Below, one piece after another: positions 8,081 to 60,922 of a DNA stretch of 64,000 nt. The notes under the pieces were generated by a model. That model had not been told where the DNA came from, did no database searches, and worked only from the letters and a program-made list of their open reading frames with translations. Both the position numbers and the translations under genes were made by a program. Source of the DNA: a virus (taxonomy: Duplodnaviria > Heunggongvirae > Uroviricota > Caudoviricetes); the IMG/VR virus record IMGVR_UViG_3300031555_010392, positions 1 to 64,000 of that record. One strand, written 5' to 3'. Every line of letters starts with the position of its first letter. The first letter of the stretch is position 1.

Positions 8081-8190
8081 AATGTATTTGTGATAAAAAC
8101 TGAATGGACAGTTTTCAAATTGCGACAGCGCTGTATATGAATAGCGCTTTACCTTTAGTTCAACTTCACTTATGAAGGATCACCACCTTT

Positions 8191-8577: not shown

Positions 8578-9908
8578 GAATAGCTGACCTCCTTGCCCGT
8601 TTCACGCAATTCCTTAAAGACAGGGAAACGCAAGGATAGATTGCCATCGACATCATGGGTTTCCTCAAAATACTGGACAGAGATCACGCGGCCAATAAGC
8701 TCATCGCGCATTTCCCAAAAACGAATTCGGTCAGTATAAGTATAGCCAGAACCAACACCAAGCTTATTGCCCTTATAATCCACGATAAAGGCACCAAGCT
8801 TACCAGTATTCGCGCCTTTACCTTCTTCATAGCCAATGATTTTCAAATCGCAATCCTGCATGACTTTAACCTTGAGAAGATTCTTGGTACGTTTACATTC
8901 ATAAGGAGCGCCATTGATGTTGATCATGATACCTTCTTGATTAACTTTTCTTGCTTGTTCAAGAAAAACCATGATTTGGTCAGTATCATAGCCTGCGTAA
9001 AGCACAGGAAGTACACGCAAGTGTTCAAAATCCGTAGCACATTCGAGAACCATTCTTCGATTTATATAAGGCTGGTCACATCTGCCAAATTGGAAATCTT
9101 CTAAGGGAAGGATGTCGAAAACATGATAAGTAACGCCATGCTTTTCACCTTTGGAGCGGACAACTTTTGTGGTTCGCTTATAACCCTCAGCGCTTGTGAG
9201 TTCATGAGCGTTATCAACAAGCAGCTCTCCATCCAGCACCCATCCATCCTCATCGTTTTTAAACCACTCGCGCATATCTGCTTCAATTTCGACAAGGCCT
9301 TCAATAGGCTGGCCCTGACGGGAGTAAAAAGTCACTTTGCCATTATTATAAATGCCAAGGCAGCGAATGCCGTCCAGCTTTTGTGTGAGCGTAAAAGACT
9401 TGTCCATCATCACAAACTCAGGATGTTCAAAATACTTCTCTGCAAGCATGCAGCCAAAAGTAGGAATGAAGTTTTTACCATAGACCTTATTAAGAGTCGT
9501 GGCAGTAACACCAATCTTGCAGTCCTTGCACATGAACTGACCAAGGAAGTCTGCAAGTTCTGAGTTAATCAGACGGATTTGGCTAATAATTGCCTGTAAA
9601 TCTGCAATCATAAGATTTGTTGCTGCAGGGGCTTTCTTGAAATAGGAACATAGAGCCCATAGATCTGGCAAATACGTTCTTGAGCAAAATTTGTCTGTTA
9701 ATACTACAGATTTATTCAACTTTGCAGTGCTTAGGCCATAAATGATATAAGGATTATATTGCTGGTAAAGGGCCTCTTTTACTGACCCATCAAGAGCATC
9801 GCGATAATTAGCGAGAACAGCGAGCTTTTCTTTGCCTGTTGCAGAAGCGATTTTTTCAAAAGCTTCTTTAATATGGAGGAGTTCTTCAATAGCCGCTTGA
9901 TTAAACAT
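8574..9908 (-). CDS. ATP-dependent DNA ligase
   Basis: motif I KLDGIRC (KxDGxR), motif III WVLDGELLV, motif IV EGIMIN, motif V LLKVKV; start re-called to MFNQ (9908) with GGAGGG RBS 8 nt upstream. Confidence 0.85.
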   Translation of the reverse strand: MFNQAAIEELLHIKEAFEKIASATGKEKLAVLANYRDALDGSVKEALYQQYNPYIIYGLSTAKLNKSVVLTDKFCSRTYLPDLWALCSYFKKAPAATNLMIADLQAIISQIRLINSELADFLGQFMCKDCKIGVTATTLNKVYGKNFIPTFGCMLAEKYFEHPEFVMMDKSFTLTQKLDGIRCLGIYNNGKVTFYSRQGQPIEGLVEIEADMREWFKNDEDGWVLDGELLVDNAHELTSAEGYKRTTKVVRSKGEKHGVTYHVFDILPLEDFQFGRCDQPYINRRMVLECATDFEHLRVLPVLYAGYDTDQIMVFLEQARKVNQEGIMININGAPYECKRTKNLLKVKVMQDCDLKIIGYEEGKGANTGKLGAFIVDYKGNKLGVGSGYTYTDRIRFWEMRDELIGRVISVQYFEETHDVDGNLSLRFPVFKELRETGKEVSYS

Positions 9909-22436: not shown

Positions 22437-22517
22437 TGGGGATAATGGGACTTGAACCCATACGCCGTTTGGCACCAGATCCTAAGTCTGGCGCGTCTGC
22501 CATTCCGCCATATCCCC
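22437..22517 (-). tRNA. tRNA-Leu(TAG): tRNA-Leu (anticodon TAG), type II with long variable arm
   Basis: 7-bp acceptor GGGGATA/TATCCCC, anticodon arm CCAGA-CTTAGGA-TCTGG, variable hairpin GCC-AAAC-GGC, T-arm ATGGG-TTCAAGT-CCCAT. Confidence 0.75.
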
Positions 22518-22528
22518 TTAAGAAAAAG

Positions 22529-22603
22529 TCGAGGTGGTGGGATTCGAACCCACGCTCTCCACATCCCAAATGTGGCGGGATAGCCAAACTTCCCTACACC
22601 TCG
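22529..22603 (-). tRNA. tRNA-Pro(TGG): tRNA-Pro (anticodon TGG)
   Basis: acceptor CGAGGTG/CACCTCG, anticodon arm CCACA-TTTGGGA-TGTGG, T-arm GTGGG-TTCGAAT-CCCAC. Confidence 0.75.
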
Positions 22604-22608
22604 ATAAA

Positions 22609-22766
22609 TAGCGATGGTGGGATTCGAACCCACGATGGCGCCTATGGCGCGAGAATTATTCAGTAAGACACCTTACAACTTAGCACCTTGGCCTTGAGCG
22701 CAGTTCTGCTACTACCCTTACTGAGATCGCGACTCTTCTCTGCTTCGTCCACTTACATACATCGCC
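22609..22766 (-). other. tRNA-like element: perfect T-arm + acceptor 3' strand at 22609-22640 pairing with GGCGATG at 22760-22766; ~158 nt, not a canonical tRNA
   Basis: GTGGGTTCGAATCCCAC T-arm identical to neighbouring tRNAs; no recognisable D or anticodon arm between; GCGCC-ATA-GGCGC hairpin before T-arm. Confidence 0.25.
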
Positions 22767-22956
22767 GATGCCCGTACTCTTACAACCGGCGGCTTAGGCA
22801 GAAGAAAGTGCTCTGTGAAGTAGATTCTTCTGCTTTATGAGCCACCCAGGCATGGTATAGAGCTTTTGTTTATCGGTACTCACAGGTACTCTAACCACCG
22901 TGTTTTCATTTCGCTTCAGCATTTACGCATTGGCAAGGAAAAACATAAACCTCTGG

Positions 22957-23028
22957 GCGCGGGAGATGGATTTGAACCATCGATCTTCAGCTCATGAGGC
23001 TGACGAGATACCACTTCTCTATCCCGCA
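22957..23028 (-). tRNA. tRNA-Met(CAT): tRNA-Met (anticodon CAT), CCA encoded
   Basis: anticodon arm TCAGC-CTCATGA-GCTGA, T-arm GATGG-TTCAAAT-CCATC, 3' ...TCCCGCG-C-CCA; 1:72 is T:G. Confidence 0.65.
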
Positions 23029-23203
23029 ATGTGGTGGCTCTACGGGCGAGGCCGTGCATGACCTCTATATGAGAGATTTCATCAGGCTATCTTCTTGGCG
23101 TTTCTATCAACGTCTATTAATGCACGCCAGTTGCGATCTGGCTGTGGCCAATATTTTTACCTGACTACTTGCGCACATATACTGCACTACCCATAGAGCG
23201 TGG

Positions 23204-23276
23204 TGGGACTGAGGGGAGTCGAACCCCTGGCACCCTGATTAAAAGTCAGGTGCTCTGCCAACTGAGCTACAATCCC
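23204..23276 (-). tRNA. tRNA-Lys(TTT): tRNA-Lys (anticodon TTT), CCA encoded
   Basis: GGGATTG TAGCTCAGTTGGCAGAGC ... CCTGA-CTTTTAA-TCAGG ... GGTTCGACTCC. Confidence 0.8.
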
Positions 23277-23353
23277 ATGTTGTCTCGGATTACGCGCCGA
23301 GTCGCGAGGTGCTGCGTGATAAGGAGCGTCGCAATTATGTGCCTTTCGGCTGG

Positions 23354-23435
23354 TGCGGCTGGTGGGATTCGAACCCACAATCCCATAGGGCGGGAGATTT
23401 TAAGTCTCCTGCATATGCCGTTCTGCCACAACCGC
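23354..23435 (-). tRNA. tRNA-Leu(TAA): tRNA-Leu (anticodon TAA), type II, CCA encoded
   Basis: anticodon arm GGAGA-CTTAAAA-TCTCC, long variable arm, T-arm GTGGG-TTCGAAT-CCCAC, A73. Confidence 0.7.
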
Positions 23436-23441
23436 ATGTAA

Positions 23442-23514
23442 TACCACGGGTGGGATTCGAACCCACAAACGCCTGATTTTGAGTCAGGATGATATGCCAA
23501 TTCTCTACCGTGGC
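23442..23514 (-). tRNA. tRNA with anticodon CAA (Leu codon UUG) but short type-I variable arm; identity uncertain
   Basis: acceptor GCCACGG/CCGTGGT (G1:U72), anticodon arm CCTGA-CTCAAAA-TCAGG, 5-nt variable CGTTT, T-arm GTGGG-TTCGAAT-CCCAC, A73. Confidence 0.5.
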
Positions 23515-23520
23515 ACGATT

Positions 23521-23550
23521 GTGGCTTCCTTTCGGTAACGACGAGCCACG
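23521..23550 (-). other. inverted repeat GTGGCT...AGCCAC hairpin just downstream of the SPFH gene (possible terminator/processing site)
   Basis: gtggcttcctttcggtaacgacgagccac; no U-tract. Confidence 0.25.
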
Positions 23551-23564
23551 CGCCGGTAAAATCA

Positions 23565-24479
23565 TTACTTCACTTCATCTTCAATATCAATACCGTCAAC
23601 AGTGATCAATGAACTTCCGCCAGAAACCTTGGGCAGTTCACCGTTCCATTGATCGTACTTGATTTTCTCAATCAACTCGCTCGTGAGAGAAGAGGCAATC
23701 TTCTTATTGGCTTCAGCCTCAGCCTCTGCCGCAATCAAGAGTGCCTCAGCTTCGGCTTCTGCGGTAATAATAGCCTGATCTGCCTTAATGCTAGCTACAT
23801 TCTTATCTTTTTCAGCCTGAATACGGGCAGTTTCGGCTTCAATACCCGCCAACTCCTGTTCCTGCTGAGCATTAACCTTCTTCTGGATGGCAGTAGCGGT
23901 CTCTTCATCCACAGTGATTTCCGTAAAGTTGACAGTATCGATCACGATACCATAAGCATCAAAGCGATTACGAAGGTGAGTGTCCAACTCTGCGTTAATC
24001 TCAGTACGTTTGTCGCCAAAGATATCAGTTACAGGATACTTGGCTGTGACTTCCTGTGTCCATGCCTTAACTTTGGGCTTAATAAAATCGTTCTTAACTT
24101 CGACGCCGGACTTACCCTTAAAGCGAATGAACGTTTCAGTAATGCGCTCGCGATCAAAATAATAAGAGAATTCCAAACTAACACGCACAGACTTACCATC
24201 TGAAGTGGGCACGGTGAAAGACTCATCCTTGGGGGAATCACCCTCGTTAGCAGCAGTCAGATAAGACTGCTCAACACCAATAGAGTAAGTAGTAACCGAT
24301 TTCATGGGAGAAACCACATGGAAACCCTGGTCCACAACTTCATCGCCGACACCGTTGCGCATATTGTAGACCACGCCAACATAACCGGCAGGGATGCGTT
24401 CCGTACAGCCAAGAACCACGATAAAAGCGATAATAATTACAATAGCAAACAAAAATGCACCAAGCTTACCTTTTGTCAT
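23565..24479 (-). CDS. SPFH/band-7 (prohibitin/stomatin/HflK-like) membrane protein
   Basis: N-terminal TM anchor, SPFH core (GYVGVVYNMRNG...FHVVSPM...), long C-terminal coiled coil rich in AEAEAE. Confidence 0.8.
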   Translation of the reverse strand: MTKGKLGAFLFAIVIIIAFIVVLGCTERIPAGYVGVVYNMRNGVGDEVVDQGFHVVSPMKSVTTYSIGVEQSYLTAANEGDSPKDESFTVPTSDGKSVRVSLEFSYYFDRERITETFIRFKGKSGVEVKNDFIKPKVKAWTQEVTAKYPVTDIFGDKRTEINAELDTHLRNRFDAYGIVIDTVNFTEITVDEETATAIQKKVNAQQEQELAGIEAETARIQAEKDKNVASIKADQAIITAEAEAEALLIAAEAEAEANKKIASSLTSELIEKIKYDQWNGELPKVSGGSSLITVDGIDIEDEVK

Positions 24480-24688
24480 TCAACAGTCTCCTTTGTTCCA
24501 GTTGGGTTATTAAGTCCATGAGAATTTTCTTCTGATATGGAAGAAGCAGTTGTGGGTTTGTCATCCATGTTATCCCGTGCATCTTTCCATAAGCGATGAG
24601 CCAAGCGGCCAAGAGGTCGGTATAGACACGAGAAGAGGAGCCACACGAGCGCAAGCCCGAGGATGACGAGAAAATAGAATACAGGCAT
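24476..24688 (-). CDS. small membrane protein, likely partner of the SPFH protein (NfeD-like role)
   Basis: MPVFYFLVILGLALVWLLFSCLY TM helix; overlaps SPFH start by 4 nt. Confidence 0.4.
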   Translation of the reverse strand: MPVFYFLVILGLALVWLLFSCLYRPLGRLAHRLWKDARDNMDDKPTTASSISEENSHGLNNPTGTKETVE

Positions 24689-24825
24689 TTGTTCTCCTTT
24701 CAAAAAGAATAAATAACCCCAGCGTCCGTAGAACATCGTATGCATCCGACTGGTTTCTAACGTACACAGAAGCAAGGTAATTACTCCCCACTGCTTATGC
24801 CGTCATACTACCAACTGGGGGCTGG

Positions 24826-24899
24826 CGAGCGATTAGGGATTTGAACCCCAGACCTACGGCTTAGAAGGCCGTTGCTCTATCCGACTGAGCTAATCGCCC
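24826..24899 (-). tRNA. tRNA-Arg(TCT): tRNA-Arg (anticodon TCT), CCA encoded
   Basis: GGGCGAT TAGCTCAGTCGGATAGAGC ACGGC-CTTCTAA-GCCGT ... GGTTCAAATCC. Confidence 0.8.
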
Positions 24900-25038
24900 A
24901 TAATATCTCCCGATCAGCGCCGTTATGCGTTTTATGTTCATTCACATAAAGGGTTGCGCCACACAAGTAGAAGGATCTACCCGTTTCCTTTTGCAACAGA
25001 GCGCTCTGAAACTTCCTTCGGCACCGATGGGGATTTGG

Positions 25039-25110
25039 AGCGGCAGACGGTAATCGAAACCGCGTCTTCGGTTTGGGAAACCGATACTCTAACCATTGAG
25101 CTACTACCGC
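25039..25110 (-). tRNA. tRNA-Gly(CCC): tRNA-Gly (anticodon CCC), CCA encoded
   Basis: GCGGTAG TAGCTCAATGGTTAGAG TCGGT-TTCCCAA-ACCGA ... GGTTTCGATTACC; acceptor pairs with CTGCCGC. Confidence 0.7.
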
Positions 25111-25122
25111 ATATTGGCTGAA

Positions 25123-25770
25123 TTAAGCAATTGAACGATAATCTTTTGTATGATAGGGTAGACCATACTTTTTGCACCATTTCCGTACAGTGTTATCTAT
25201 GACACCGTAGCGTCGAGCAAGTAACGTGAAATTGCCATGGTTTTCAATAAGAAGCTGGCTAAGTTCTTCTTTTGTCGGCCAATCAACTTTCTTTTTGCCA
25301 ACATGCGCACAGTGGCTGCACCTTTCTGCTAAACGAGTTATTTCCGCACCGCAATCTTTACAGTAATAAAAGTGTTTAAAATGATGAGACTTATTATTTC
25401 TTCCAGCATAAGTTCTTGTTTGCGAGTGACAATTAGGACACAACCATCGGAGATTGTCTAAAGTGTTGTTCTTATTATTTCCATCTTTATGGTCGAGCTG
25501 GAGAACGAGAGGTCTTCCATTCCATTCACCTTTATGACCACAAATTGCACAGACATACTCAACGTTTTCCAACTCACGGAAGCGTCTTTTTATTGCATTT
25601 ACAGAAACGCCGCTCATTTCTGTAAAAATTTCTTCGTCCGCATAAACCTTATGGCTTTTGTTTTGATAAAGAGGTGGTTTAATACCGTATTCTTTAAGTC
25701 GCTTTTTAACGACAGCGTAACTGCCCCCTTTATTTGACTTATAACCAAGATTGTTAATTAATTCTGCCAT
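25123..25770 (-). CDS. HNH homing endonuclease embedded in the tRNA array
   Basis: DHKDGNNKNNTLDNLRWLCPNCH HNH motif plus additional CxxC/HxxC pairs. Confidence 0.75.
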   Translation of the reverse strand: MAELINNLGYKSNKGGSYAVVKKRLKEYGIKPPLYQNKSHKVYADEEIFTEMSGVSVNAIKRRFRELENVEYVCAICGHKGEWNGRPLVLQLDHKDGNNKNNTLDNLRWLCPNCHSQTRTYAGRNNKSHHFKHFYYCKDCGAEITRLAERCSHCAHVGKKKVDWPTKEELSQLLIENHGNFTLLARRYGVIDNTVRKWCKKYGLPYHTKDYRSIA

Positions 25771-25859
25771 TGACTGACTATTAGCGGCAATCTGTGCAAG
25801 CTCTTCTTTTGAATAACGATCAACTAGTGCAGCTATCTTACGCGCCCCCCATTAAAAAG

Positions 25860-25930
25860 CAAGCCCGCTTGGATTTGAACCAAGAATGAAACCGTCAAAG
25901 GGTCTTGTGTTGCCATTACACCACGGGCCT
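25860..25930 (-). tRNA. tRNA-Gln(TTG): tRNA-Gln (anticodon TTG)
   Basis: AGGCCCG TG GTGTAATGGCAACAC AGACC-CTTTGAC-GGTTT ... CTTGG-TTCAAAT-CCAAG CGGGCTT G. Confidence 0.65.
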
Positions 25931-25958
25931 ATGAGAGGTCTGTTACCAGACCCAATGT

Positions 25959-26204
25959 CTACTTTTTAAGCTCAGAGAAGAACTTAATCAGATAAGGCTC
26001 ATCTTCTTTATTCATACAAAAGACTTCATAATATTCGCCATGCTCATCACACAGACGTCCAATGGCAATATACTGAGAAAAGGTGGACTTGAGGTTAAAC
26101 TCCTCAGTACCATCAACAGAGCGAATGACTACATCGCCCTTGCACTTTTTGACGGCTTCCATAAGGGAATTAACATCCTTTGCGTTTTTAAGAAGCATAA
26201 ACAA
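25959..26204 (-). CDS. hypothetical protein with HPr-like C-terminal pattern (KSxF...G...GEDE...LxKL) but no active-site His
   Basis: NLKSTFSQYIAIGRLCDEHGEYYEVFCMNKEDEPYLIKFFSEL resembles HPr/Crh Ser46 region and C-terminal half; weak. Confidence 0.3.
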   Translation of the reverse strand: MFMLLKNAKDVNSLMEAVKKCKGDVVIRSVDGTEEFNLKSTFSQYIAIGRLCDEHGEYYEVFCMNKEDEPYLIKFFSELKK

Positions 26205-26229
26205 CCTCCTTTCTTTGGTAAGAGTAAAA

Positions 26230-26302
26230 TGGGCCTACAAGGATTCGAACCTTGAACCGACTGGTTATGAGCCAGCTGCTCTAACCGTTGAGCTATAGGC
26301 CC
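26230..26302 (-). tRNA. tRNA-Met(CAT): tRNA-Met/Ile2 (anticodon CAT)
   Basis: GGGCCTA TAGCTCAACGGTTAGAGC GCTGG-CTCATAA-CCAGT ... CAAGG-TTCGAAT-CCTTG TAGGCCC A. Confidence 0.8.
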
Positions 26303-26308
26303 GTGTGG

Positions 26309-26393
26309 CGGAGAGTGTGAGATTTGAACTCACGGAGGTGTTACCCTCGCTGGTTTTCAAGACCAGATCCTTAAGCCACTCGGACAACTCTCC
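26309..26393 (-). tRNA. tRNA-Ser(TGA): tRNA-Ser (anticodon TGA), type II, CCA encoded
   Basis: GGAGAGT TGTCCGAGTGGCTTAAGGA CTGGT-CTTGAAA-ACCAG long variable arm ... TGAG-TTCAAAT-CTCA ACTCTCC G. Confidence 0.75.
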
Positions 26394-26593
26394 AAACCGG
26401 GGCTGCGCATTACAGGCTACGCAGCCAAAATATAAGTTTGTTCATCCTGTACTGAACGGGTGATTTGTGATCCTACGGTATACTATCCAGCCTTTTGTGA
26501 AATGGCGGCGCTGTACATAGATGAGTTCATCGCTCCTGATGACGACGATAGAATGACCGCTTAAAGGCGAAGAGGAAACCGCCGATCACATGG

Positions 26594-26666
26594 TGGAGCT
26601 GAAGGGTTACGATCCCTCTGCCTCCTGCTTGCAAAGCAGGCGCTCTGCCGATTGAGCTACAGCCCC
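26594..26666 (-). tRNA. tRNA-Ala(TGC): tRNA-Ala (anticodon TGC) with G3:U70, CCA encoded, atypical T-loop ATCGTAA
   Basis: GGGGCTG TAGCTCAATCGGCAGAGC CCTGC-TTTGCAA-GCAGG ... AGGG-ATCGTAA-CCCT CAGCTCC A CCA. Confidence 0.75.
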
Positions 26667-26678
26667 ATGAGGAGTGGA

Positions 26679-27173
26679 TTACCACTCCAGAATTTCAGTT
26701 ACAATAGGCTCTGCGACGAAACAGGAAAGTTCGCATGCGACTTTAACAGCTTCATGTTCATCATGCCCAAGATGGAATGCGGCCATAGCGAAGTCTTCCC
26801 CGCAGCCTATAGCGGCGAAATCTTTCACTTCGCATACAAACAGACCATGAATTTCAAACAGCTTGTTTTTATAGGCGAGCAAATAGTCGTTTTCCGCTTT
26901 GGCCTCGCCGTCATATTCCTTACGCCATTTGGTGAATTCGATCATATGATCCAAGATAGCCTTCTCACTTGCATCGGCAGGATTGTGAGTGGTGATGTAA
27001 TGCCAGAAGAGGCTGGCTTCCTGCGCGGATCCCGCACTGCCGACAACGATACCATTCTCCTTTTTAAGCTTGGTAAAATTACCTTTGGTATCTTTTGTCC
27101 AGCCATGGACAACAATGCTGTCGGCACTCATAACGATCTTATTAGGGTAAACCTTCGCACAAACGACGCTCAT
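26679..27173 (-). CDS. HslV/proteasome-beta-like Ntn peptidase (Ser1 nucleophile variant), 164 aa
   Basis: N-terminus MSVVCAKVYPNKIVMSADS aligns to HslV TTIVSVRRNGHVVIAGDGQ; GSAGSAQEA matches G-x-A-G-S/T-x-A-D-A; start at 27173 with GGAGG 8 nt upstream. Confidence 0.5.
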   Translation of the reverse strand: MSVVCAKVYPNKIVMSADSIVVHGWTKDTKGNFTKLKKENGIVVGSAGSAQEASLFWHYITTHNPADASEKAILDHMIEFTKWRKEYDGEAKAENDYLLAYKNKLFEIHGLFVCEVKDFAAIGCGEDFAMAAFHLGHDEHEAVKVACELSCFVAEPIVTEILEW

Positions 27174-27330
27174 ATATTGAACCTCCGTAAGATTTGTTAA
27201 AGGGGAGGGGCGCTTAGATGGTGCTATGTTCAGCAACGAAAGCAACCACAGCGCCCCACTGGAGCCCGGATAGGCGGCCAGCCGAGCTTATAGCTCTCAC
27301 AAAGAAAGGAACCAAGGCACCAGGCCTTTG

Positions 27331-27403
27331 GAGTGGCAGACGGGATTTGAACCCGCAAACAATCGCCTTGGAAGGGCGATGCTCTACCATTGAACTACTG
27401 CCA
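27331..27403 (-). tRNA. tRNA-Gly(TCC): tRNA-Gly (anticodon TCC), CCA encoded
   Basis: GTGGCAG TAGTTCAATGGTAGAGC TCGCC-CTTCCAA-GGCGA ... GCGGG-TTCAAAT-CCCGT CTGCCAC T. Confidence 0.8.
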
Positions 27404-27507
27404 CGCACAATTCCCGCTTATTGACCGAAAGGGGAATGTGGCGAACGGAGTGGGTTGACCAGACCCTACATGAAAGAGGTACCACCAGTGCCTAACCTGG
27501 CAGTTGG

Positions 27508-27581
27508 AGCCGGTGAAGGGACTTGAACCCCCAACCTGCTGATTACAAATCAGCTGCTCTGCCTTCTTGAGCTACACCGGC
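27508..27581 (-). tRNA. tRNA-Thr(TGT): tRNA-Thr (anticodon TGT), CCA encoded
   Basis: GCCGGTG TAGCTCAAGAAGGCAGAGC GCTGA-TTTGTAA-TCAGC ... GGGGG-TTCAAGT-CCCTT CACCGGC T. Confidence 0.8.
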
Positions 27582-54097: not shown

Positions 54098-54829
54098 TTA
54101 CTTGGCAGCCTTCTTGGTGTTGGCGGTGCGGAGCTTCCACTGTTCACCGGTGACCTGGCTGTGGATGATATCCATCAGAAGGGGGGCGATGCCATCAGCA
54201 GAGACGCCATCCCATTCAAGGCGGGCTTTGGCTTTGGCAAGAGCCATAGCGAGAGCTTTGACATCGTTGTCACGGGCGCGGAGTCCTTCGATGCCGCACT
54301 TGGACAGAACTTCCTTGAACAGGCAATTACGGGCTTCGTTGATGCACTTTTCACGAGTAGCCTTGGGCAGGCCGTTGGATTCGGCGAGAATCACGTCGTT
54401 GATTTTGGGGGCGAGAGCCTTCAGGCCGTCGATGATATAGCCCGCTTCTTCGATAGGAGTGCCGACCTTTTCAGCATGACGGAAGAAGTCCAACATGTTG
54501 ATACGGATACCGTTGCGGACAGCGAACTCAAGAGTGACAGCTTTAGCCATACGCTTGGCATAGCCGGTAGAATGCTCCTGTATTTTGCACAGTTCAACAA
54601 GAGGAGCATCAGTTGCAAGGAAACCATTGTACAGATCGATCAGGGCAGATTCGTTGTAGGCGTCTTTGGCGGCGTTCATGGCAGACATGGCGGCTTTCGA
54701 GTCCTTGGACAAGACAGCTTCCCCGGCGGCTTCAGCAAGCAGAACTTTGTTCATGGCAGAGATAGCCTTGCGGAAATTGTTGCGGAGTTCATCGGTGGAC
54801 AGGATGGTGGTGTTGGTGGTGTTAGACAT
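54098..54829 (-). CDS. hypothetical alpha-helical protein (243 aa), first gene of the minus-strand early block
   Basis: AAAGAGGT RBS; adjacent to divergent control region. Confidence 0.5.
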   Translation of the reverse strand: MSNTTNTTILSTDELRNNFRKAISAMNKVLLAEAAGEAVLSKDSKAAMSAMNAAKDAYNESALIDLYNGFLATDAPLVELCKIQEHSTGYAKRMAKAVTLEFAVRNGIRINMLDFFRHAEKVGTPIEEAGYIIDGLKALAPKINDVILAESNGLPKATREKCINEARNCLFKEVLSKCGIEGLRARDNDVKALAMALAKAKARLEWDGVSADGIAPLLMDIIHSQVTGEQWKLRTANTKKAAK

Positions 54830-55632
54830 AGATGCATACCTCTTTCGTTAATTTAGTAGCGTGATAGTCAATCAGCGCTCTATTGGGGGCACAGCTATTG
54901 CGTGGGTAGATAGACTGTGCCCTGGGTAGAACGTTGAACCTTGTTTGATGCATACCCTGCTTGGACAGGAATCATGTGGACATGATTATCCTGCGGCACG
55001 TACTCGTCCCTATTCGTCGTGGGTCGAACCCGCACTATACACAGAGATGTAGCCCATTGATAGACAGATAGAGGGCATGTGTATAGCTCGACTTAGCCCG
55101 GGCAGGTAGAGGCATTTGTATGTGGCAGGCCTTGCCTTTGACGTCTTACATTTGGCCGTGCTGATGCCGTGCCCGCCGGATTCGCTAACCTCCGCCAACT
55201 CATTGCATGCCCTTTCGCGTGTCAAGCGCTATCGACACAGGCGAGTCATCTTCATTGATGGTTATTCTTCCCCTGCCGTTTTAACGCTGTCTAACCTTTA
55301 TTCGTCATGCACCCTGTCGGCATTGCTTCACGCCGTACTTTTCGCGTCAAAGGTGGATTCTGTTGTCAAGGTTCGCACGCTCCGGCACTTGCGCGGGTAG
55401 TGGTTAGACCACTACCAACTGATAAGTTAGACCTATCATGAACACGTTCGCGCTTTCGCGTGTGGGGTTTCCTGTGGTGTCTTTCCCTCCTCCTGTGGGG
55501 CTTGTCGTGTGGGGTTATTGGGTACGGTCACATAGTATCAGCTTACATTTTTAGAATCACCCGAATTTCAAAAAAGCGCTGAAAACCTTACTACGCCCCA
55601 AATTTTAAAAATTAAAACATCAAAAATAGCGT

Positions 55633-55676
55633 AAAAAAATATCACGGAATCCGTCAAAAACCGTGATATTTTTTTT
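55633..55676. terminator. bidirectional rho-independent terminator (A7-hairpin-T8)
   Basis: perfect 15-bp inverted repeat AAAAAAATATCACGG / CCGTGATATTTTTTT separated by 13 nt. Confidence 0.5.
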
Positions 55677-55779
55677 GATCCATGGGGGACGGGTTTTCAT
55701 AGGAAAATCAAGGCTTCCAGGGCCCACCGCCGCCAAGTTCGACCTTCTCATCTCTAGGCCTCCAACCGGCCTTTTCCGA

Positions 55780-56400
55780 CTATTTTCTCCTAAATTTCCG
55801 CCCTCCTACCTCACCACCCCTCGTTCCATTCCACCTCCATTTTTCTTCGGCAAAATCTTCAATCAATCTTCAACCCTAATCCCATCTCCACCCATCCCCT
55901 CATCACCCTCACAATCGCCCCACAACCCCATTCTCACCCCTTCACACACCATACCCTTATCCACCCCAACCCCCAACTGCACGCCCCTTAAAACCCCTTT
56001 ACAGGCCCAAATAAGCCCATAATAGTTATTTAATAACCAACCACCACTCTTAACCCTTTCAATCCCACACCAAACCTAACCCCTCATAAATCGCTCTATA
56101 ACCCCTTAATCAACCTCTCTCCCAACCTACCCTAAGCCCACTAACTCCACCCCAAACAAATGCCTAAAACACCCCTTAAAAGTCGAAATAACCCCATACA
56201 TTTCCCACCACTTAATCCGTCAAAAATCCAAACAAAATAAGCACTTCCACCCCGAAAGGACTCGAAAGTGCTTTAATTTATCTATAAAACTCCACTTAAA
56301 CTACCAATATCTTATTCACCAACCCAATCTGTCCACATTCACCATTCATGCCATTAGTAAAATCAGCTCCCAAAAACCCTCACATTTATTTTTCTAAAAC
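55780..56400 (+). repeat. ~620-nt non-coding region almost devoid of G on the plus strand (C/A/T-rich), with scattered CCCCTTAA(A) and CCCTAA repeats
   Basis: about 25 G in 620 nt; ACCCCTTAA x3, CCCTAA x3, CCACCCCAA x2; the only ORF here (55663..56022) is a Pro-rich composition artefact. Confidence 0.5.
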
Positions 56401-56412
56401 CATAAAAACCTA

Positions 56413-56441
56413 TTTACAAAATAACTAATATGTGATATACT
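56413..56441 (+). promoter_or_regulatory. sigma70-type promoter for integrase (TTTACA-17-TGaTATACT)
   Basis: 27-bp core TTTACAAAATAACTAATATGTGATATA identical to minus-strand promoter at 18717-18745. Confidence 0.55.
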
Positions 56442-56558
56442 AATACTACCGGATGGAGCAGCCAAGAGCATGCTCCTGATTATATTTCACTCATATCACT
56501 CGCATCTCACACCAGCCCATCACAAACTAATACCATCACACAGAAAGAGGGATATAGC

Positions 56559-57473
56559 ATGTCTGCATCCACAAATGTTACCTCTATCTTTTCTCACCCC
56601 AATTTTCCCCCTAATCCCACATCCGTCTCCCGCAAAATCTCTGGTCACATGACCAAGACAGTGCACCCAATCAAGTCTATCTCTCAGATCCAGGCACTTC
56701 ACCACAATCTGCTCACCAAAGCATCTACAGCTAAAACTCCCAACAAAGCTCTTCTTGCATATCGTAATTGGTTATTCTTTGCACTGGGTATCAACCTGGG
56801 ATTCAGGGGCGGAGATATCACTGAGCTTACCTGGGGAGATCTTCTCACTTATAACCCTCATACAGATACCTACGACATCCGAACTGATGAAAATAACTTC
56901 ATCCATGCAGAGAAGACAGGAAAAGCTACCTACATCATTCTGAATGACGAAGCCAAAGAATCTATCAAATTTTATCTCATAGCCACCAGACCATTAGGCC
57001 TAATCCCAAATCTTTCTTCACCCGTATTTGCCAGCAATAAATCTTCTGGTACCAAGGAAGCAAAAGTAACTGGTCATATTGACTGTGACAACATTGGCAG
57101 GATCATCAAAAAGGCAGCCAAAGAAGTTGGTATCACTCAGAATATCTGCACTCATTCCATGCGTAAGACCTTTGGCTATCACTACTATAAGAATACTGGA
57201 GATCTTATCACTCTGCAAAAGATCTTTGGTCATAGTACTCCTGCTATCACTCTCGCTTACATTGGTATTGAGATCGAAGAGTTAACAGCAGCCTATGGCA
57301 ATAAACCTGATACCTCTATTCCTGATCTCTATGCTTACACCTCAAATCTCACTAACAATCCTATACCTATCAACACAACTTCACCCACTGCAAAGCTCAA
57401 AGTGATCAAAAGTACTGTTACTCCTAATGCCATTCACACCTACAGTCCATACAGATATTCTAATGCATTATGA
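56559..57473 (+). CDS. int: tyrosine recombinase / phage integrase
   Basis: conserved R (GFRGGD), HSMRKTFGYH (HxxR), GHSTPAITLAYIG with catalytic Tyr; AGAGGG RBS; S/T/P/N-rich low-complexity N-terminus. Confidence 0.8.
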   Translation: MSASTNVTSIFSHPNFPPNPTSVSRKISGHMTKTVHPIKSISQIQALHHNLLTKASTAKTPNKALLAYRNWLFFALGINLGFRGGDITELTWGDLLTYNPHTDTYDIRTDENNFIHAEKTGKATYIILNDEAKESIKFYLIATRPLGLIPNLSSPVFASNKSSGTKEAKVTGHIDCDNIGRIIKKAAKEVGITQNICTHSMRKTFGYHYYKNTGDLITLQKIFGHSTPAITLAYIGIEIEELTAAYGNKPDTSIPDLYAYTSNLTNNPIPINTTSPTAKLKVIKSTVTPNAIHTYSPYRYSNAL

Positions 57474-57763
57474 TCTATCGCGCGGAGTACGGAGTGTGGA
57501 ATGCGAAGTGAAGCGAACGTAGTGAGCATAACGCAGCATGTAACACGTAGTACTACACCCCCCGCGCGATTCATGAATACTACTGGAATGAGCGTAGCGA
57601 ATTCCAGTAGTAGGAATACGGGGCCGAAGGCCCAATACGAATATAAGATAATATTTGTTTATAAATAAGGTGAAAACGAACACCCACTTTTTTGGGAAAC
57701 GCTTTCTATCCGTAAAAAGCGAATCCCAAATAGAATGGAATTCCGTTAACTAACAACATCTGG

Positions 57764-57771
57764 TGTATAAT
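57764..57771 (+). promoter_or_regulatory. extended -10 (TGtTATAAT) putative promoter for 57829 gene; -35 unclear
   Basis: TGTATAAT 58 nt upstream of start. Confidence 0.35.
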
Positions 57772-57828
57772 AATAAAATATTATACTAATGTCACAATAT
57801 ATTGTGAAAGAAGGTAATAATCATCAAA

Positions 57829-58554
57829 TTGGCGATCAACACCAACTTTTTTCCATGGGTAGGAGGGAAACAAGCTTATGGTTCTAAGCTGGAATTATTC
57901 TTAGCTGTTTATCTGCGATTTTGTGTGAATGAGATGGGTGTCTGCACAGTCTCTTATTCTGAACTGGCGGAGATCTTAGGGCTCTCTCTTAATGGGGGCA
58001 AGGCTGCACATAATGCGAGAGAAAAAATCAGTAACGTTATCAAAGGACTGGTAACGAGGGGAAAAGAGGATTTTCCTAACGACTTCATATGCTTTGGGGT
58101 GCCTAATAAAAAAGATGAGGACATCCGGATAAATGATGCATTCAAGATTCCTGTCAAGAGCATGAAGCGAGAACAGATACCTCCTTTTGTTGTGGTGGAG
58201 CTTGATGATTTTTTTAAGATCGTTTCAGCTGCAAAGAATGCAAGTATCAAGCCTGATGAATTATTCGCTCTTTATGTTTTCCTGAAGGGATGGATGCGTC
58301 CTGTTGCTTTTGATGAGGGGAAGGATAAGTCTTTGGGGTGCTGGTTATGCCGTGAGCAGATCACAACCTCGCTCCATATCTCAGTCCCTACTTATATGAA
58401 GTATCGTAAGATCCTTGAAGAGAATGAGCTTATCTTTTTTAAACAGGGACAAGCTCAGATCAGCCCTGCACTCTTTTCGACCACAAATAATCCAGCTATA
58501 TGGACGGCAATTGAAGACGCCATTTTAGCGGAAGACAATGAGGAGGTATCATGA
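57829..58554 (+). CDS. hypothetical DNA-binding protein (winged-helix-like CTVSYSELAEILGLS), start uncertain (TTG)
   Basis: HTH-like segment typical of replication-initiator/regulator N-domains; weak. Confidence 0.4.
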   Translation: MAINTNFFPWVGGKQAYGSKLELFLAVYLRFCVNEMGVCTVSYSELAEILGLSLNGGKAAHNAREKISNVIKGLVTRGKEDFPNDFICFGVPNKKDEDIRINDAFKIPVKSMKREQIPPFVVVELDDFFKIVSAAKNASIKPDELFALYVFLKGWMRPVAFDEGKDKSLGCWLCREQITTSLHISVPTYMKYRKILEENELIFFKQGQAQISPALFSTTNNPAIWTAIEDAILAEDNEEVS

Positions 58555-58856
58555 GCAGTATTTCCAAAACCAAAACCATCCCCTTAGACCAGGACTTTGA
58601 GGAGATACTTATTAGTGCTCTTAGATATGCGCTGGGACGCAACAGTTATATTGTTAAAATGACAGCAGAATACATTTCCAAATTCATCCCGGATTTGTCT
58701 AGTCAGCCGCTCCTCGTTATGCAACGAGATTTGCGCAATGAGCTTTATCAACCAGATAGTCGCTGGGCTTTTTCGATGGTGGATATTCAGACTTGGTTAG
58801 AGTTGCTCAGAAAAACAGAAGAAGAGTTGGATAAGAGAGGGTATTTTGTTGGATAG
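58551..58856 (+). CDS. hypothetical protein (101 aa)
   Basis: GAGGAGG RBS; ATGA coupling. Confidence 0.45.
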   Translation: MSSISKTKTIPLDQDFEEILISALRYALGRNSYIVKMTAEYISKFIPDLSSQPLLVMQRDLRNELYQPDSRWAFSMVDIQTWLELLRKTEEELDKRGYFVG

Positions 58857-59274
58857 AGATGATTTGTTAAATAAAGTTCGGAATTGTACGCCTTATTATG
58901 GATGGGAAAGTAAATATCCAGAACTATATGGAAAATATGGAATGGGCATATATGGGATTTGTGAAAGATGGCATTGGTTTGAAGAAGATAATATTACAAA
59001 TTATGCAAGAGAACATGGTTGCGCACCATTAACCGAGGCGACAAACGAAGAATTGTTATTAATGTGGGCAATGGCCGATAGCTATTGGTTGAGTGAATAT
59101 GAAAAATGGTACGACCATGCTTGCAAAAAGGCAAGAAAATTAGACGAATTCGTAGGCAAGTGTGAAAGAAAATATTTTGGATACGATGAAAATGGATATA
59201 CAGATAAAACAATAGATAGAGTTCTTAGTTCAGTATTTGAAGTTTTGGATAATAAATTGAATTTTACGAGGTGA
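58846..59274 (+). CDS. hypothetical protein (142 aa), TTG start
   Basis: GAGAGGG RBS. Confidence 0.4.
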   Translation: MLDRDDLLNKVRNCTPYYGWESKYPELYGKYGMGIYGICERWHWFEEDNITNYAREHGCAPLTEATNEELLLMWAMADSYWLSEYEKWYDHACKKARKLDEFVGKCERKYFGYDENGYTDKTIDRVLSSVFEVLDNKLNFTR

Positions 59275-59462
59275 TCTTATAAAAGCCCTAACAAAAGAAA
59301 AGCTAATCAAAATCATAAAGCAGTATGAGCACGATCTCATCTTTGACGACATGGACGATTTTCAAAAAATTTTTGATCGCTATGGAGATGAGTATTTTGT
59401 GAATAGAGACACCGGTGAACTGGAGCTGTACAAAAAGAACGAATCATTTAAGGAGGATAGGC

Positions 59463-59723
59463 ATGGGGAGAATCATTAAAGAATTTGAAACAGAGTACAA
59501 CGTTGGCGATGTTGTAGTGTACGAAAAGAATAATATACTGTTTGTCGGAATCATTGAGGGTTATTACATCGATGACAATAATTTTTGGTTCAACATCAGG
59601 GTTAACGACAATTTTGTGCACACCTATTCAAATGGTGGCGATGTCGCTGAATGGGATATTGTAGGCGTCTTGCCCGATGAATTGGCCAAGGACTGCAAGA
59701 AAAAAATTATTCATAACTGTTAA
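59463..59723 (+). CDS. hypothetical protein (86 aa)
   Basis: AAGGAGG RBS 6 nt before ATG; ORF-track GTG extension rejected. Confidence 0.45.
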   Translation: MGRIIKEFETEYNVGDVVVYEKNNILFVGIIEGYYIDDNNFWFNIRVNDNFVHTYSNGGDVAEWDIVGVLPDELAKDCKKKIIHNC

Positions 59724-59735
59724 GGAGGGATCTAT

Positions 59736-60467
59736 TTGATCTACATCACAGGAGATACCCACCGCGATTTTTATCGTATCGCTATGCATTGCCATCAGTA
59801 TGAAACCACAAAGGATGATCTGATGATCGTTCTTGGCGACAATGGCATCAATCTTCTTTCAAGAGATAGCGACACTATGCTCAAAGAGCAGCTTGAAAAA
59901 CTGCCCATCACCTTTATGCTGATCCGCGGGAACCACGACCGTCGTCCGGATGAGAGCGAGTACGAGCGCAAGTACATCAAGGGTGATGGCTACTCCGGCA
60001 TTTTCTTGGTCGAGCCGGAATATCCGTCATTGCTCTTTGCGATTGATGGCAATGCATACCAGATTCTTGGAAAGAATGCTGTTGTCATTGGCGGCGCCTA
60101 CAGCGTAGACAAGGATTGGCGCATTCAAAATGGTCAGCCTTGGTTTGAAGACGAGCAGCTGAGCTATGAAGAGCGCAAAGAAATCTATGAAAGCCTCATA
60201 TGGGCAAAACAGCATGATATTTCTATCGAATTGTTCTTAACGCACACTTGTCCTTACAGGTATATTCCGCGGGAAATGTTCCTTGGCTATGTTGATCAAA
60301 CTAGTGTGGACGACAGGATGGAAGAGTTCTTGGATAGCGTCTGGGAGTTGTTTGGCGAAGAGAGCAAATGGTACTGCGGTCATTGGCACACAGACAAGGC
60401 GATTGATAATGTGAGATTCATGTATAACGATATCATTTGTTTGAATGACGTTTATGATATCAACTGA
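59736..60467 (+). CDS. calcineurin-like metallophosphoesterase
   Basis: GDTHRD, GDNG, RGNHD, H...H motifs; TTG start after AAGGAGGGA. Confidence 0.75.
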   Translation: MIYITGDTHRDFYRIAMHCHQYETTKDDLMIVLGDNGINLLSRDSDTMLKEQLEKLPITFMLIRGNHDRRPDESEYERKYIKGDGYSGIFLVEPEYPSLLFAIDGNAYQILGKNAVVIGGAYSVDKDWRIQNGQPWFEDEQLSYEERKEIYESLIWAKQHDISIELFLTHTCPYRYIPREMFLGYVDQTSVDDRMEEFLDSVWELFGEESKWYCGHWHTDKAIDNVRFMYNDIICLNDVYDIN

Positions 60468-60478
60468 TTTTTTATGTC

Positions 60479-60510
60479 TGTTTTCAAAGCTTATAAAATA
60501 ACTAATAAAG
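60479..60510 (+). promoter_or_regulatory. conserved promoter-associated element (TTTTCAAAGCTTATAAAATAACTAATAAAGGAG)
   Basis: 28/30 identity to minus-strand element at 48498-48534. Confidence 0.35.
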
Positions 60511-60517
60511 GAGTAAG

Positions 60518-60922
60518 ATGATGGGAAATAAAGTTGAAGCTGTAAATCGCTTGGAGTTTATAGAATATGTCCGCTCAATCGTAAACAAGGTTAAGATGAA
60601 ACATATAAACGAGGAACAATACGTAAAAGACAAAATGGCTGCAGCTTATGAGGTCATTGCATCTGTCCTCGACGAGCTGAAAGAATTCAAAACCCTCGAT
60701 GTTTTTCCAATCATTCATGCCAAATGGGTGCTTGAAGAATCTCCCTATGCTGAACATGAAAGGGGTATAGATGGCGAGAGTCATCCGCGGTACGTGTGCA
60801 GCAATTGCGGTCATGAAGCTGGATTTGAATGTGATCCAGACGGCTTTGCAACATGGCAAGATAAGACACCATGGTGTGGCAATTGCGCCGCCAAGATGGA
60901 TCTGGAGGATAAGAATGAATAA
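60518..60922 (+). CDS. hypothetical protein with C-terminal zinc ribbon
   Basis: CSNCG...CGNCAAKM. Confidence 0.45.
   Translation: MMGNKVEAVNRLEFIEYVRSIVNKVKMKHINEEQYVKDKMAAAYEVIASVLDELKEFKTLDVFPIIHAKWVLEESPYAEHERGIDGESHPRYVCSNCGHEAGFECDPDGFATWQDKTPWCGNCAAKMDLEDKNE

Follow-up and report, generated by a model that had tools for sequence, protein, structure and literature searches.

The 64,000-nt stretch of viral DNA analysed here (positions 1 to 64,000 of the IMG/VR record IMGVR_UViG_3300031555_010392, assigned to the Caudoviricetes; hereafter, the window) comes from a large tailed phage and carries, in the gap ahead of a tyrosine recombinase gene, a tract from which guanine is nearly missing on the plus strand. 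It is fairly secure that this G-poor tract represents, in this phage, a non-coding element conserved among SPbeta-like phages, large siphophages that code for a single-subunit RNA polymerase of the YonO type and for Pol III alpha, DnaB and RecD2 replication proteins of their own. Equally secure are the site of the element, with the genome end (short terminal repeat or pac end) on one side and the first early promoter of host type on the other, and its polarity, the G-poor strand being the one that reads inward from the genome end and also the sense strand of the adjacent early operon. The function preferred here, with low confidence, is that this sense strand acts as a single strand, most probably as an RNA leader transcribed inward from the repeat region.

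The depletion can be stated by simple base counts. Between 55780 and 56400, G accounts for 28 of 621 nt (4.5%, with C 39%, A 32% and T 24.5%) against 22% in the window as a whole, and the binomial probability of 28 or fewer G at p = 0.22 is about 1e-34. The 600-nt segment poorest in G of all 64 kb starts at 55824 (4.3% G; mean 22.0%, standard deviation 3.6%), the top five G-free runs of the 64 kb (60-67 nt) all fall within 55851-56431, and G still makes up only 6.9% of 55780-56760. The near-absence of G noted in a preliminary description of this DNA, made by eye from the letters, is thus borne out by recount, as are its three copies of CCCTAA (55874, 56130 and 56609), its two copies of CCACCCCAA (55961 and 56147) and the G-rich runs on the complementary strand, such as GGGGTTGGGGTGG, whose complement CCACCCCAACCCC is at 55961. 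The element ACCCCTTAA, given there as threefold, has two exact copies (56101 and 56171), and the supposed third is GCCCCTTAA (CCCCTTAAAA at 55984). The same description saw the bias continue through the first ~200 nt of the recombinase open reading frame (ORF), with an S/T/P/N-rich N terminus; both points hold (9.9% G; MSASTNVTSIFSHPNFPPNPTS), and the bias in fact reaches further, extending over the whole recombinase gene at four-fold degenerate sites. These sites have 5% G against 24% in the next gene (Fisher p = 1e-5), and it is C, not A, that stands in for G.

Inside the tract, the short motifs ATCCCA, CCACCC, CACCCC, ACCCCT and ATCCAC occur in one orientation at 2.5-3.4 fold the level of shuffled sequences, with z = 3.8 for ACCCCT and z = 4.4 for CACCCC over dinucleotide shuffles. 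Blocks related to the conserved block CCCCTTAAAAGTCGAAATAACCCC are found in four related contigs (L008, L010, L012 and L013), direct-repeat families are limited to 2-3 imperfect copies, and no clear periodicity of C-runs was found in the tract. GC-containing palindromic hexamers fall from 10.9 to 1.9 per kb. The tract is non-coding, as no conserved ORF with a start codon is present: the plus strand of the 527-nt core has one NTG start codon where ~27 would be expected, the ORF at 55663-56022 had no family match in protein-family searches, and the ORFs called in the tracts of relatives vary in strand and position and translate into low-complexity sequence. Searches against Rfam 15 returned only transfer RNAs (tRNAs) at gathering scores in the whole window, and nothing credible in 54700-57900 at E <= 5.

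The tract lies in a 1.7 kb divergent gap between a leftward arm of replication genes and a rightward early arm; genes within 1-54829 are essentially all on the minus strand, and those from 56559 on are on the plus strand. Exact-protein look-up retrieved six contigs of this phage that are 100% identical and hence uninformative on variation. A homology search with the recombinase opened a family at 43-86% identity, and the relatives compared were ten contigs of this family together with L132, one further member among the matches listed in a metagenome scan with the recombinase alignment. Other searches gave little: blastn of 55400-57800 against 50,697 phage records matched only a 92-nt recombinase fragment, and scans of IMG/VR yielded one distant locus with the recombinase and none with a 243-amino-acid left-arm protein. 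The pattern CCGTGA..GGGG..GGTTTTCAC was also tried in IMG/VR and discarded, as none of its 20 matches is followed by a G-poor tract and all are put down to chance.

Comparison with related phages, which the preliminary description had proposed, finds G depletion in every relative examined, including all 10 whose recombinases are 40-86% identical, and for this reason it is not peculiar to one sequence. A gap of 1-1.5 kb ahead of the recombinase gene is common to the relatives and holds, on the recombinase strand, a G-poor and C-rich tract of 186-527 nt (G 4.6-9.3%, C 29-50%) whose primary sequence has largely diverged. In those contigs that reach left of the tract, the motif ATGGGGG..GGTTTTCAC (ATGGGGG..TTTTCAC) is followed 50-60 nt on by a box of the CAGTTCATCC type at the 5' edge of the tract; the window form of this box, CAAGTTCGACCTTCTCATC, appears in relatives as GCAGTTCATCC, CTAGTTCATCC or GCAGTTGATCC. 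A promoter of the form TTTACA/TTGACA-17-TATAAT lies 70-156 nt upstream of the recombinase gene in 9/9 relatives tested. The order of elements is a shared one, namely inverted repeat, motif, box, G-poor tract, AT-rich stretch, promoter and recombinase, and in most relatives a metallophosphoesterase and a PF05183 protein, of the family of the SPbeta RNA polymerase YonO, follow downstream. Between the window and L008, whose recombinases are 86% identical, conserved blocks of the tract stand between stretches that have diverged and still avoid G.

The connection to cultured phages comes from the polymerase. A tblastn search with the polymerase of L013 detected the Bacillus phages BUCT082 (45.6% identity) and SPbeta (yonO, 24%) and Psychrobacillus phage Perkons, in addition to Enterocloster and Thomasclavelia phages and Clostridium phage c-st. 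In SPbeta, the 952-nt gap between yonP and yonR contains ~400 nt with 8% G and 27% C on the sense strand of yonP-yonO, preceded by ATATATGGGGGTATATTTACATC, its version of the GGGGG motif. BUCT082 has a tract of the same polarity (7% G) and two copies of the motif, and its record begins 175 nt before the motif; among the metagenome relatives, the contig L016 likewise begins 190 nt before its own. The genome end of Perkons is known, as a 264-bp direct terminal repeat has been mapped with PhageTerm (PMC13245101). Read inward from the right end, its tract, of 450 nt and 5% G, begins at the inner boundary of this repeat, and the GGGGG motif is partly present 52 nt inside the repeat, counted from that boundary. 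For SPbeta, the packaging opening point has been placed between yonR and yonP, followed by a sharply bounded block of ~250 bp (bioRxiv 10.1101/2021.11.22.469490; PMC8270828). All three tracts lie upstream of the operon of a YonO-type RNA polymerase and have no recombinase gene beside them.

By position, the box of the window is the counterpart of the inner edge of the terminal repeat in Perkons. Because position and motif are homologous to those of Perkons, SPbeta, BUCT082 and L016, a terminal repeat or pac block of ~250 bp would occupy roughly 55480-55740 of the window, and the tract would start at its inner edge. The packaging signal suggested in the preliminary description thus gains support from the position of the element in relatives, at the Perkons repeat and the SPbeta opening point, whereas the end of the window phage itself would lie here by comparison. 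In the literature searched, the SPbeta pac region, the small RNA ncr1052 and the Perkons repeat are described; the compositional tract, its conservation and the shared motifs are not.

The composition is mirrored on the far side of the putative end. In L012, a second tract of ~500 nt and opposite polarity (1400-1900; C 5-12% and G 35-39% on the plus strand) lies across a central block of ~290 bp, and at the left end of Perkons, too, the strand that reads inward is poor in G (1-8% at 400-700). The first leftward genes of the window have 42-51% C and 11-14% G at the four-fold sites of their sense strands, and the GC skew of the plus strand turns from positive to negative across 55.0-55.6 kb. Given this mirrored composition, the G-poor strand always reads away from the central block. 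The inward-from-end polarity and the operon-sense polarity coincide, and are inseparable by sequence alone. A 151-amino-acid ORF has been called on the minus strand of L012 (1526-1981); it is of low complexity, rich in H, P, S and T, and probably spurious.

Loss of G keeps to the limits of transcription units and not to distance, covering the tract and the whole recombinase gene and ending at the structured block behind it, with a sharp stop at the recombinase stop codon (from 8% to 29% G in bins 794 and 894 of contig L002). A role at the level of RNA is favoured because the depletion is specific to G, specific to the sense strand and bounded by transcription units. Plus-strand RNA of the tract has a predicted minimum free energy of -8.9 kcal/mol per 400 nt (window mean -102 +/- 17.5) and is the least structured in the 64 kb; the antisense RNA (-55.5 kcal/mol) is not so. 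In the mechanism proposed, a leader would be transcribed inward from the repeat region, and the loss of G would abolish both G-C and G-U pairing while also eliminating AUG, GUG and UUG start codons and GGAGG ribosome-binding sites. The outcome would be a long, naked, C-rich RNA suited to the loading of Rho at a rut site, C-rich naked RNA being the textbook substrate for Rho loading, and the tract has the features of such a site: C 42% and G 5% over 527 nt, predicted absence of structure and a single NTG. It would insulate the early operon from transcription arriving from the repeat or the concatemer junction, or attenuate such transcription. The operon would begin with the recombinase and proceed to the phage RNA polymerase gene, which is found downstream in relatives, and the recombinase mRNA would be under the same constraint as the tract.

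A sense transcript is known from the equivalent place in SPbeta, where lysogens produce it. The small RNA ncr1052, which is the same as ncr44, has 183 nt and maps to 2221800-2221982 of NC_000964.3, on the yonP strand and between yonR and yonP (Irnov et al., PMC2965217). With the start of yonP placed at ~2222341 from the distances given in PMC4448311, these coordinates convert to 64650 to 64468 of AF020713, where ncr1052 begins ~65 nt ahead of the GGGGG motif and reaches ~70-80 nt into the tract; directly upstream, a weak sigmaA-like promoter (TTGTGT-17-TGaTAGCAT) can be recognised by eye. Sense-strand hairpins with T-rich tails close the tract in the window, L008, L015 and L016. The C-rich non-coding transcript that the preliminary description had listed among its possible roles is thus plausible, as it agrees with the sense small RNA of SPbeta and with the least structured predicted RNA of the window, and the tract would be transcribed in the window phage as well.

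Several points weigh against a leader of this kind. Upstream of the tract, no conserved recognisable sigma70-type promoter was found in the gut-phage family, and a hairpin stands ahead of the motif in the gut phages, so that the source of a transcript in the window phage is hypothetical. The record of ncr1052 consists of only two complementary DNA reads and a tiling-array call, and its placement leans on the indirectly derived yonP coordinate. The involvement of Rho is pure inference. Selection on codon usage could explain part of the depletion of third-position G in the genes, and the recombinase gene of L013 is not G-poor, with 26% G at four-fold sites. The T7 genome, with a weaker G-poor array and no upstream promoter at its linear end, would by analogy suggest a role of the DNA itself, and the contigs L002 and L003 cross the region uninterrupted.

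Such a role of the DNA, in which the duplex would be recognised or used during repeat cutting and duplication, packaging, or ejection of the leading end, is the main rival of the leader and is possible, if somewhat doubtful. Candidates would be arrays of sites for terminase or an accessory protein, all in one orientation, and the tract would be the SPbeta-group counterpart of the T7 element SRL, a short-repeat array just inside the terminal repeat. This would account for the place of the tract, which adjoins the mapped repeat of Perkons and lies in the pac or opening-point gap of SPbeta, for the conserved motifs at the junction of repeat and tract, for the mirror tracts around the ~290 bp block of L012 and at both ends of Perkons, and for the enrichment of short motifs in one orientation. 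T7 offers a parallel in positions 161-400, between its 160-bp repeat and promoters A1-A3, with 10.8% G and CCTAAAG units; to our knowledge, the function of the T7 SRL is itself not known. Many metagenome contigs begin or end in or beside the tract, and four of the six identical contigs end inside it (56016, 56048 and, twice, 56074). However, such breaks would arise equally from loss of coverage in low-complexity sequence, and the records of Enterocloster phages also break at the equivalent place, in pure A/T repeats. The duplex view also leaves unexplained the depletion of G at synonymous sites over 915 coding nt, which ends at the gene end, and there is no regular repeat unit: Tandem Repeats Finder gives no more than a weak array of an 8-mer (4.8 copies, 67% matches) and 1.9 copies of a 10-mer. 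A further proposal, considered unlikely, is that the motif, the box CAGTTCATCC and the tract form a signal for repeat processing or packaging that is coupled to the phage's own RNA polymerase of the YonO type. After initiating or pausing at the box, the enzyme would meet a G-free template, and this event would mark the repeat boundary for the terminase, in the way of T7 RNA polymerase pausing; the G-rich strands would run 5' to 3' toward both genome ends, a telomere-like polarity. The boundary box resembles GCAGTTAGTC, located just upstream of the mapped YonO start site of SPbeta (TTGCAGTTAGTCGGA[T]), a resemblance to be taken as a lead only, and in L012 TGCAGTTAGTCATG stands immediately ahead of the tract. 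BUCT082 retains a 95% identical copy of the SPbeta YonO promoter region despite a polymerase nearer to the gut-phage type, and no second copy of the CAGTT box, a candidate for a general phage promoter, was found in the window, the late region lying outside it. If true, this would be a case of convergent, transcription-coupled end formation in a lineage with an unrelated RNA polymerase of ancestral type.

Four other explanations are less probable than these. An origin of replication served by the host DnaA, with G-free boxes (TTATCCACA), their weaker relatives and an AT-rich unwinding element next to them, is improbable for the tract as a whole, even though forward boxes with at most one mismatch number 14 family-wide against 4.7 expected, a count reached by no shuffle, with 0 in reverse orientation. 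Five boxes lie in L013, where 0.28 would be expected in the core, and L132 has two without any mismatch. The distance to the GGGGG motif is alike in five phages (275-378 nt in the window, L008, L012, L013 and L132), ATCCAC occurs 14 times against 4.1 expected, and the AT-rich stretch 56286-56412 and, as the next conserved gene, one with a weak HTH_36 match (57829-58554) follow. The window itself, however, has a single 8/9 box that is not significant alone, no box is present in L010, L015, L016, L017, L018, L019, SPbeta or BUCT082, and the boxes take up a small part of tracts of 300-600 nt. In addition, the plus-strand GC skew changes from positive to negative, the sign of a terminus and not of an origin. 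The replication origin of the preliminary description finds support only in some relatives with DnaA boxes. No better in likelihood is a mutational footprint without function, left by deamination (C to U, A to hypoxanthine) of a G-rich strand that is often single-stranded, for example in a 3' tail exposed by end resection or when displaced, while its complement drifts to an A+C-rich and G-poor composition like that of the mitochondrial light strand. All four base shifts fit this (G from 22 to 4.5%, C from 22 to 39%, A from 28 to 32%, T from 28 to 24.5%), as do the probable genome end nearby, the mirrored polarity on two sides, and a primary sequence that diverges fast while its composition is kept. 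Nevertheless, a purely mutational origin is disfavoured because the edges are abrupt, falling at conserved motifs and at the gene end with no gradient, and because the recombinase four-fold sites shift from G to C rather than from G to A; the putative repeat and the 800 nt to its left are without such skew, and the window and L008 share conserved blocks inside the tract. The G-rich strand could also be thought to form a G-quadruplex, i-motif or R-loop region with a regulatory or priming role, for which there is very little probability. Runs of three or more C are somewhat frequent in the window tract (29 against 22.6 expected, including CCACCCCAACCCCC), and, were the region transcribed leftward, its strong GC skew would be of the kind classically prone to R-loops. 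Canonical motifs, with four runs joined by loops of 1-7 nt, however, amount to 1 in the window against 0.56 +/- 0.70 in shuffles, no more than composition predicts; only L008 is nominally above, and 9/15 tracts, including those of SPbeta, BUCT082 and Perkons, have none. Neither is there a conserved leftward promoter to the right of the tract, and the hairpin at 56239-56274 would block leftward transcripts from entering it. Least credible is an attachment site (attP) with arm-type recombinase-binding sites for chromosomal integration.

That last idea would be prompted by the short direct repeats and by the neighbouring tyrosine recombinase gene, whose product has its catalytic residues intact (R83, K119, H199, R202, H225 and Y234, invariant in 17 homologues). 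PF00589 (residues 61-235) is, however, the sole domain detected in this protein, and the matches of a PDB search were confined to the catalytic domain, with no arm- or core-binding domain. The N-terminal ~60 amino acids are of low complexity and unconserved among the 17 homologues, and the family as a whole combines a conserved catalytic core of ~215 amino acids with highly variable tails, rich in S, T, P and N, at both termini. In 185,579 species genomes (one for each species) no integrated or close copy was found: the best relative has only 39% identity, the nearest ones are catalytic-domain-only proteins of 180-190 amino acids from Gastranaerophilales, Paraclostridium and the Bacillus group, and every close homologue belongs to a contig from a metagenome or a phage. 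The repeats match at low identity, as is to be expected with such a composition, the tract of SPbeta, BUCT082 and Perkons has no recombinase gene next to it, and published accounts place the SPbeta attP elsewhere, flanked by prophage-boundary genes. The tract is thus very probably neither an attachment site nor a G-quadruplex array. With these two roles unsupported among the four in the preliminary description, an origin or packaging signal and a C-rich transcript survive in modified form.

Other candidates were examined and set aside. A small ORF from the ATG of ATGGGGG is conserved by eye in neither frame nor length and has no ribosome-binding site ahead of it. A sponge for the anti-Shine-Dalgarno sequence (CCTCC) was rejected because CCTCC-type words are absent among the enriched k-mers, and a Chi array shielding the entering end because the B. 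subtilis Chi, AGCGG, occurs on neither strand of the tract in SPbeta or BUCT082 and the known firmicute Chi sequences cannot lie on a strand devoid of C. A relationship of the recombinase to the SPbeta repressor MrpR had no sequence support in the PDB search.

Table 1. Features in and around the G-poor tract, and other annotated loci of the window
Feature	Position	Strand	Remarks
DnaB-type helicase gene split by an intein (LAGLIDADG / homing-endonuclease domains)	11682-14315		
14 tRNA genes with small ORFs between	22437-27581	-	tRNA array
A-free, G/T-rich 72-nt segment GTGTGGGGTTTCC...GTGTGGGGTT	55445..55516	+	~170-240 nt upstream of the GGGGG motif
Perfect 15-nt inverted repeat AAAAAAATATCACGG / CCGTGATATTTTTTT, 13-nt spacer	55633..55675	both	unique in the window
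Motif CCATGGGGGACGGGTTTTCAT (family consensus ATGGGGG-N-GGGTTTTCAC)	55680..55700	+	unique in the window
Box CAAGTTCGACCTTCTCATC, 5' edge of the G-poor tract	55734..55752	+	unique in the window; 0.02 expected by chance
Core G-depleted, C-rich non-coding tract	55742..56268	+	527 nt; G 5.3%, C 41.9%
DnaA-box-like 9-mer TTATCCACC, 8/9 matches to TTATCCACA	55957..55965	+	275 nt after the GGGGG motif
Three CCCCTTAA(AA) motifs	55984, 56102, 56172 (55984..56181)	+	last within conserved block CCCCTTAAAAGTCGAAATAACCCC
Hairpin AAGCACTT...AAGTGCTT, then T-rich tail	56239..56285	both	closes the C-rich core
AT-rich, G-poor spacer, hairpin to promoter	56286..56412	+	GC 0.35, GC skew -0.54 to -0.66
Sigma70/sigmaA-type promoter TTTACA-17-TATACT with TG extension, for the recombinase gene	56413..56441	+	sequence prediction
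Tyrosine recombinase ('integrase') gene, 304 amino acids	56559..57473	+	PF00589 1.9e-16, phrog_216 1.5e-42
Structured G-containing block after the recombinase stop	57470..57650	+	-66 kcal/mol over 181 nt

The features of the gap are collected in Table 1. The A-free segment is the longest such run of the window (runner-up 38 nt), contains repeat family D9 (CGTGTGGGGTT) three times, and has G/T-rich counterparts at the matching place in L008 and at the start of the L018 contig; it may indicate where the outer part of the putative terminal repeat lies. The inverted repeat that follows folds with -15.8 and -18.6 kcal/mol on the two strands. Its half-sites ATCACGG/CCGTGAT are kept in the relatives that have the recombinase, with an invariant stem (that is, no covariation) and a variable loop in L008, L010, L016, L018 and L019, and were not found in SPbeta, BUCT082 or Perkons. 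It could be a bidirectional terminator-like hairpin or a protein-binding site, or it could be the recombinase's own site, serving to circularise a terminally redundant genome in the manner of Cre/lox. A 14-mer, CCCTTATAAATCAA, or its complement, occurs near or inside the tract in L008 (2100-2210), L019 (2195-2215), L012 (2270-2290) and L132 (3420-3440); in L008 it is present twice, in inverted orientation, around the inverted repeat, and it is not present in the window. The hairpin that closes the core folds with -10.0 kcal/mol on the plus strand and -19.6 on the minus strand, contains 7 of the region's few G, and has a conserved counterpart in L008, which carries a TTTATTTTTT tail and folds with -17.7 kcal/mol; L015 and L016 also have plus-strand terminator-like hairpins after the tract. 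Around the AT-rich spacer are the G-free runs 56271-56330 and 56367-56431.

To the left of these elements, 800 nt of non-coding sequence (54830-55630) have a GC content of 52-55%, against 44%, and are conserved in L008, L019 and partly L010. Their near-invariant blocks include ACATACAAATGCCTCTACCTGCCCGGGCTAAGTCGAGC, a hairpin GGGCACAG...CTGTGCCC shows a compensatory change in L010 (GGGTACA...TGTACCC), and GGGTTCGACCC, at ~55018-55030, resembles the T-arm of a tRNA; there was no Rfam match. This region may be a 5' untranslated region, a regulatory region, a structured RNA or an att-like site. To the right, the hairpins of the block behind the recombinase gene include ATCGCGCGGAGTAC...GTACTACACCCCCCGCGCGAT and TACTACTGGAAT...ATTCCAGTAGTA, and a strong promoter-like site on the minus strand (TTCACA-17-TATAAT, 57808-57780) is directed into this block. 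The conserved gene that comes next has been mentioned above for its weak HTH_36 match. Further on, 58817-58878 is the longest C-free run of the window (62 nt), located inside the ORF 58846-59274 (C 9%), and the plus-strand GC skew of +0.61 at 58800-59000 is an asymmetry of opposite sign, 2.4 kb to the right of the tract. As a whole, the window encodes a Pol III alpha-type polymerase, a RecD2 helicase, a DnaB helicase and a ligase, and the longest contig of the recombinase cluster has 137 kb.

Some observations concern the wider group. In a comparison of BUCT082 7244-8961 (L212) with SPbeta 59153-60833 (L106), the yonN-yonK leader of 1.5 kb, with the mapped YonO start site inside it, has 95% identity between the two phages, yet the BUCT082 polymerase is 45.6% identical to the gut-phage enzyme and the YonO of SPbeta only 24%. 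Judged from these sequences, the divergence of the polymerase next to such a leader would imply module exchange or relaxed promoter specificity. Further phages that have a YonO-type polymerase show low-complexity sequence of other kinds at the equivalent place: Enterocloster phages have 0.2-0.8 kb of nearly pure A/T repeats with poly-T at the end of the record (L103 4800-5600 in PMBT24; L104 1-200 and L105 4900-5011 in CB457P1), and the record of TR-TP1 starts with a purine-only stretch (L109 1-100; A 63%, G 23%).

SPbeta has been a model phage for 50 years, yet where its pac site, its replication origin and the promoter of YonO lie has still to be defined. The comparison points to one compact conserved module in its yonR-yonP gap, made of the GGGGG motif, the boundary box and the G-free tract, which is common to uncultured gut and rumen phages and to a phage with a mapped 264-bp repeat. 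As the module is shared with SPbeta, the cutting site and the first transcription become directly testable in B. subtilis. More generally, near-total avoidance of one base on one strand can be conserved, and selectable, in non-coding phage DNA, and extends here to the synonymous sites of the adjacent gene. G-free tracts also break short-read assemblies, and can thereby hide genome ends or be mistaken for them.

Among known systems, the closest are the yonR-yonP gap of SPbeta and its equivalents in BUCT082 and Perkons. Like the window tract, these stand upstream of the operon of a YonO-type RNA polymerase, have 5-8% G over 270-450 nt of the operon sense strand, and are preceded at ~50 nt by an ATGGGGG..TTTnCAC motif; in SPbeta and Perkons they are found beside the opening point or the short terminal repeat, a neighbourhood that is probable for the window. 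Unlike the window, they give no nucleotide alignment past the short motif, lack the recombinase gene and the ATCACGG/CCGTGAT inverted repeat, and, as Bacillus-type tracts, are AT-rich with C 26-28%, against 42% in the window.

The left end of T7 shows a similar arrangement, with non-coding DNA inside a short direct terminal repeat (160 bp) and before the host promoters A1-A3, a G-poor inward-reading strand (10.8% G at 161-400) and a G-rich inner part of the repeat. Both T7 and the SPbeta-like phages encode their own RNA polymerase, and the polymerases of T7 and T3 pause at the concatemer junction, which starts maturation and packaging (PMC3276506). The T7 SRL is, however, a regular array of CCTAAAG heptamers with mild depletion, whereas the window tract has no regular unit, is longer and is far more extreme, and the two RNA polymerases are unrelated (a T7-type single-subunit enzyme and a two-barrel enzyme of the YonO type), so that no homology is implied.

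Rut regions such as lambda tR1 are also C-rich, G-poor, untranslated and unstructured as RNA, and by prediction the tract is the strongest such region of the window; rut sites typically measure ~70-100 nt, against 300-600 nt for these tracts. The light strand of vertebrate mitochondria is alike in composition only, being A+C-rich and strongly G-poor, four-fold sites included. The mitochondrial bias is genome-wide and graded by the time of single-strand exposure, whereas the window tract is local and has abrupt edges. The Cre/loxP system of P1, finally, is comparable to the recombinase and the inverted repeat and not to the tract: in P1, a small tyrosine recombinase is expressed from the leading end of a terminally redundant genome, as is presumed here, and the conserved inverted repeat of the window lies nearby, in the presumed repeat region. 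The spacer of the P1 site has 8 nt in place of 13 nt, and the window recombinase has no sequence similarity to Cre, so that a function of 55633-55675 as a Cre/loxP-type site is speculation by analogy.

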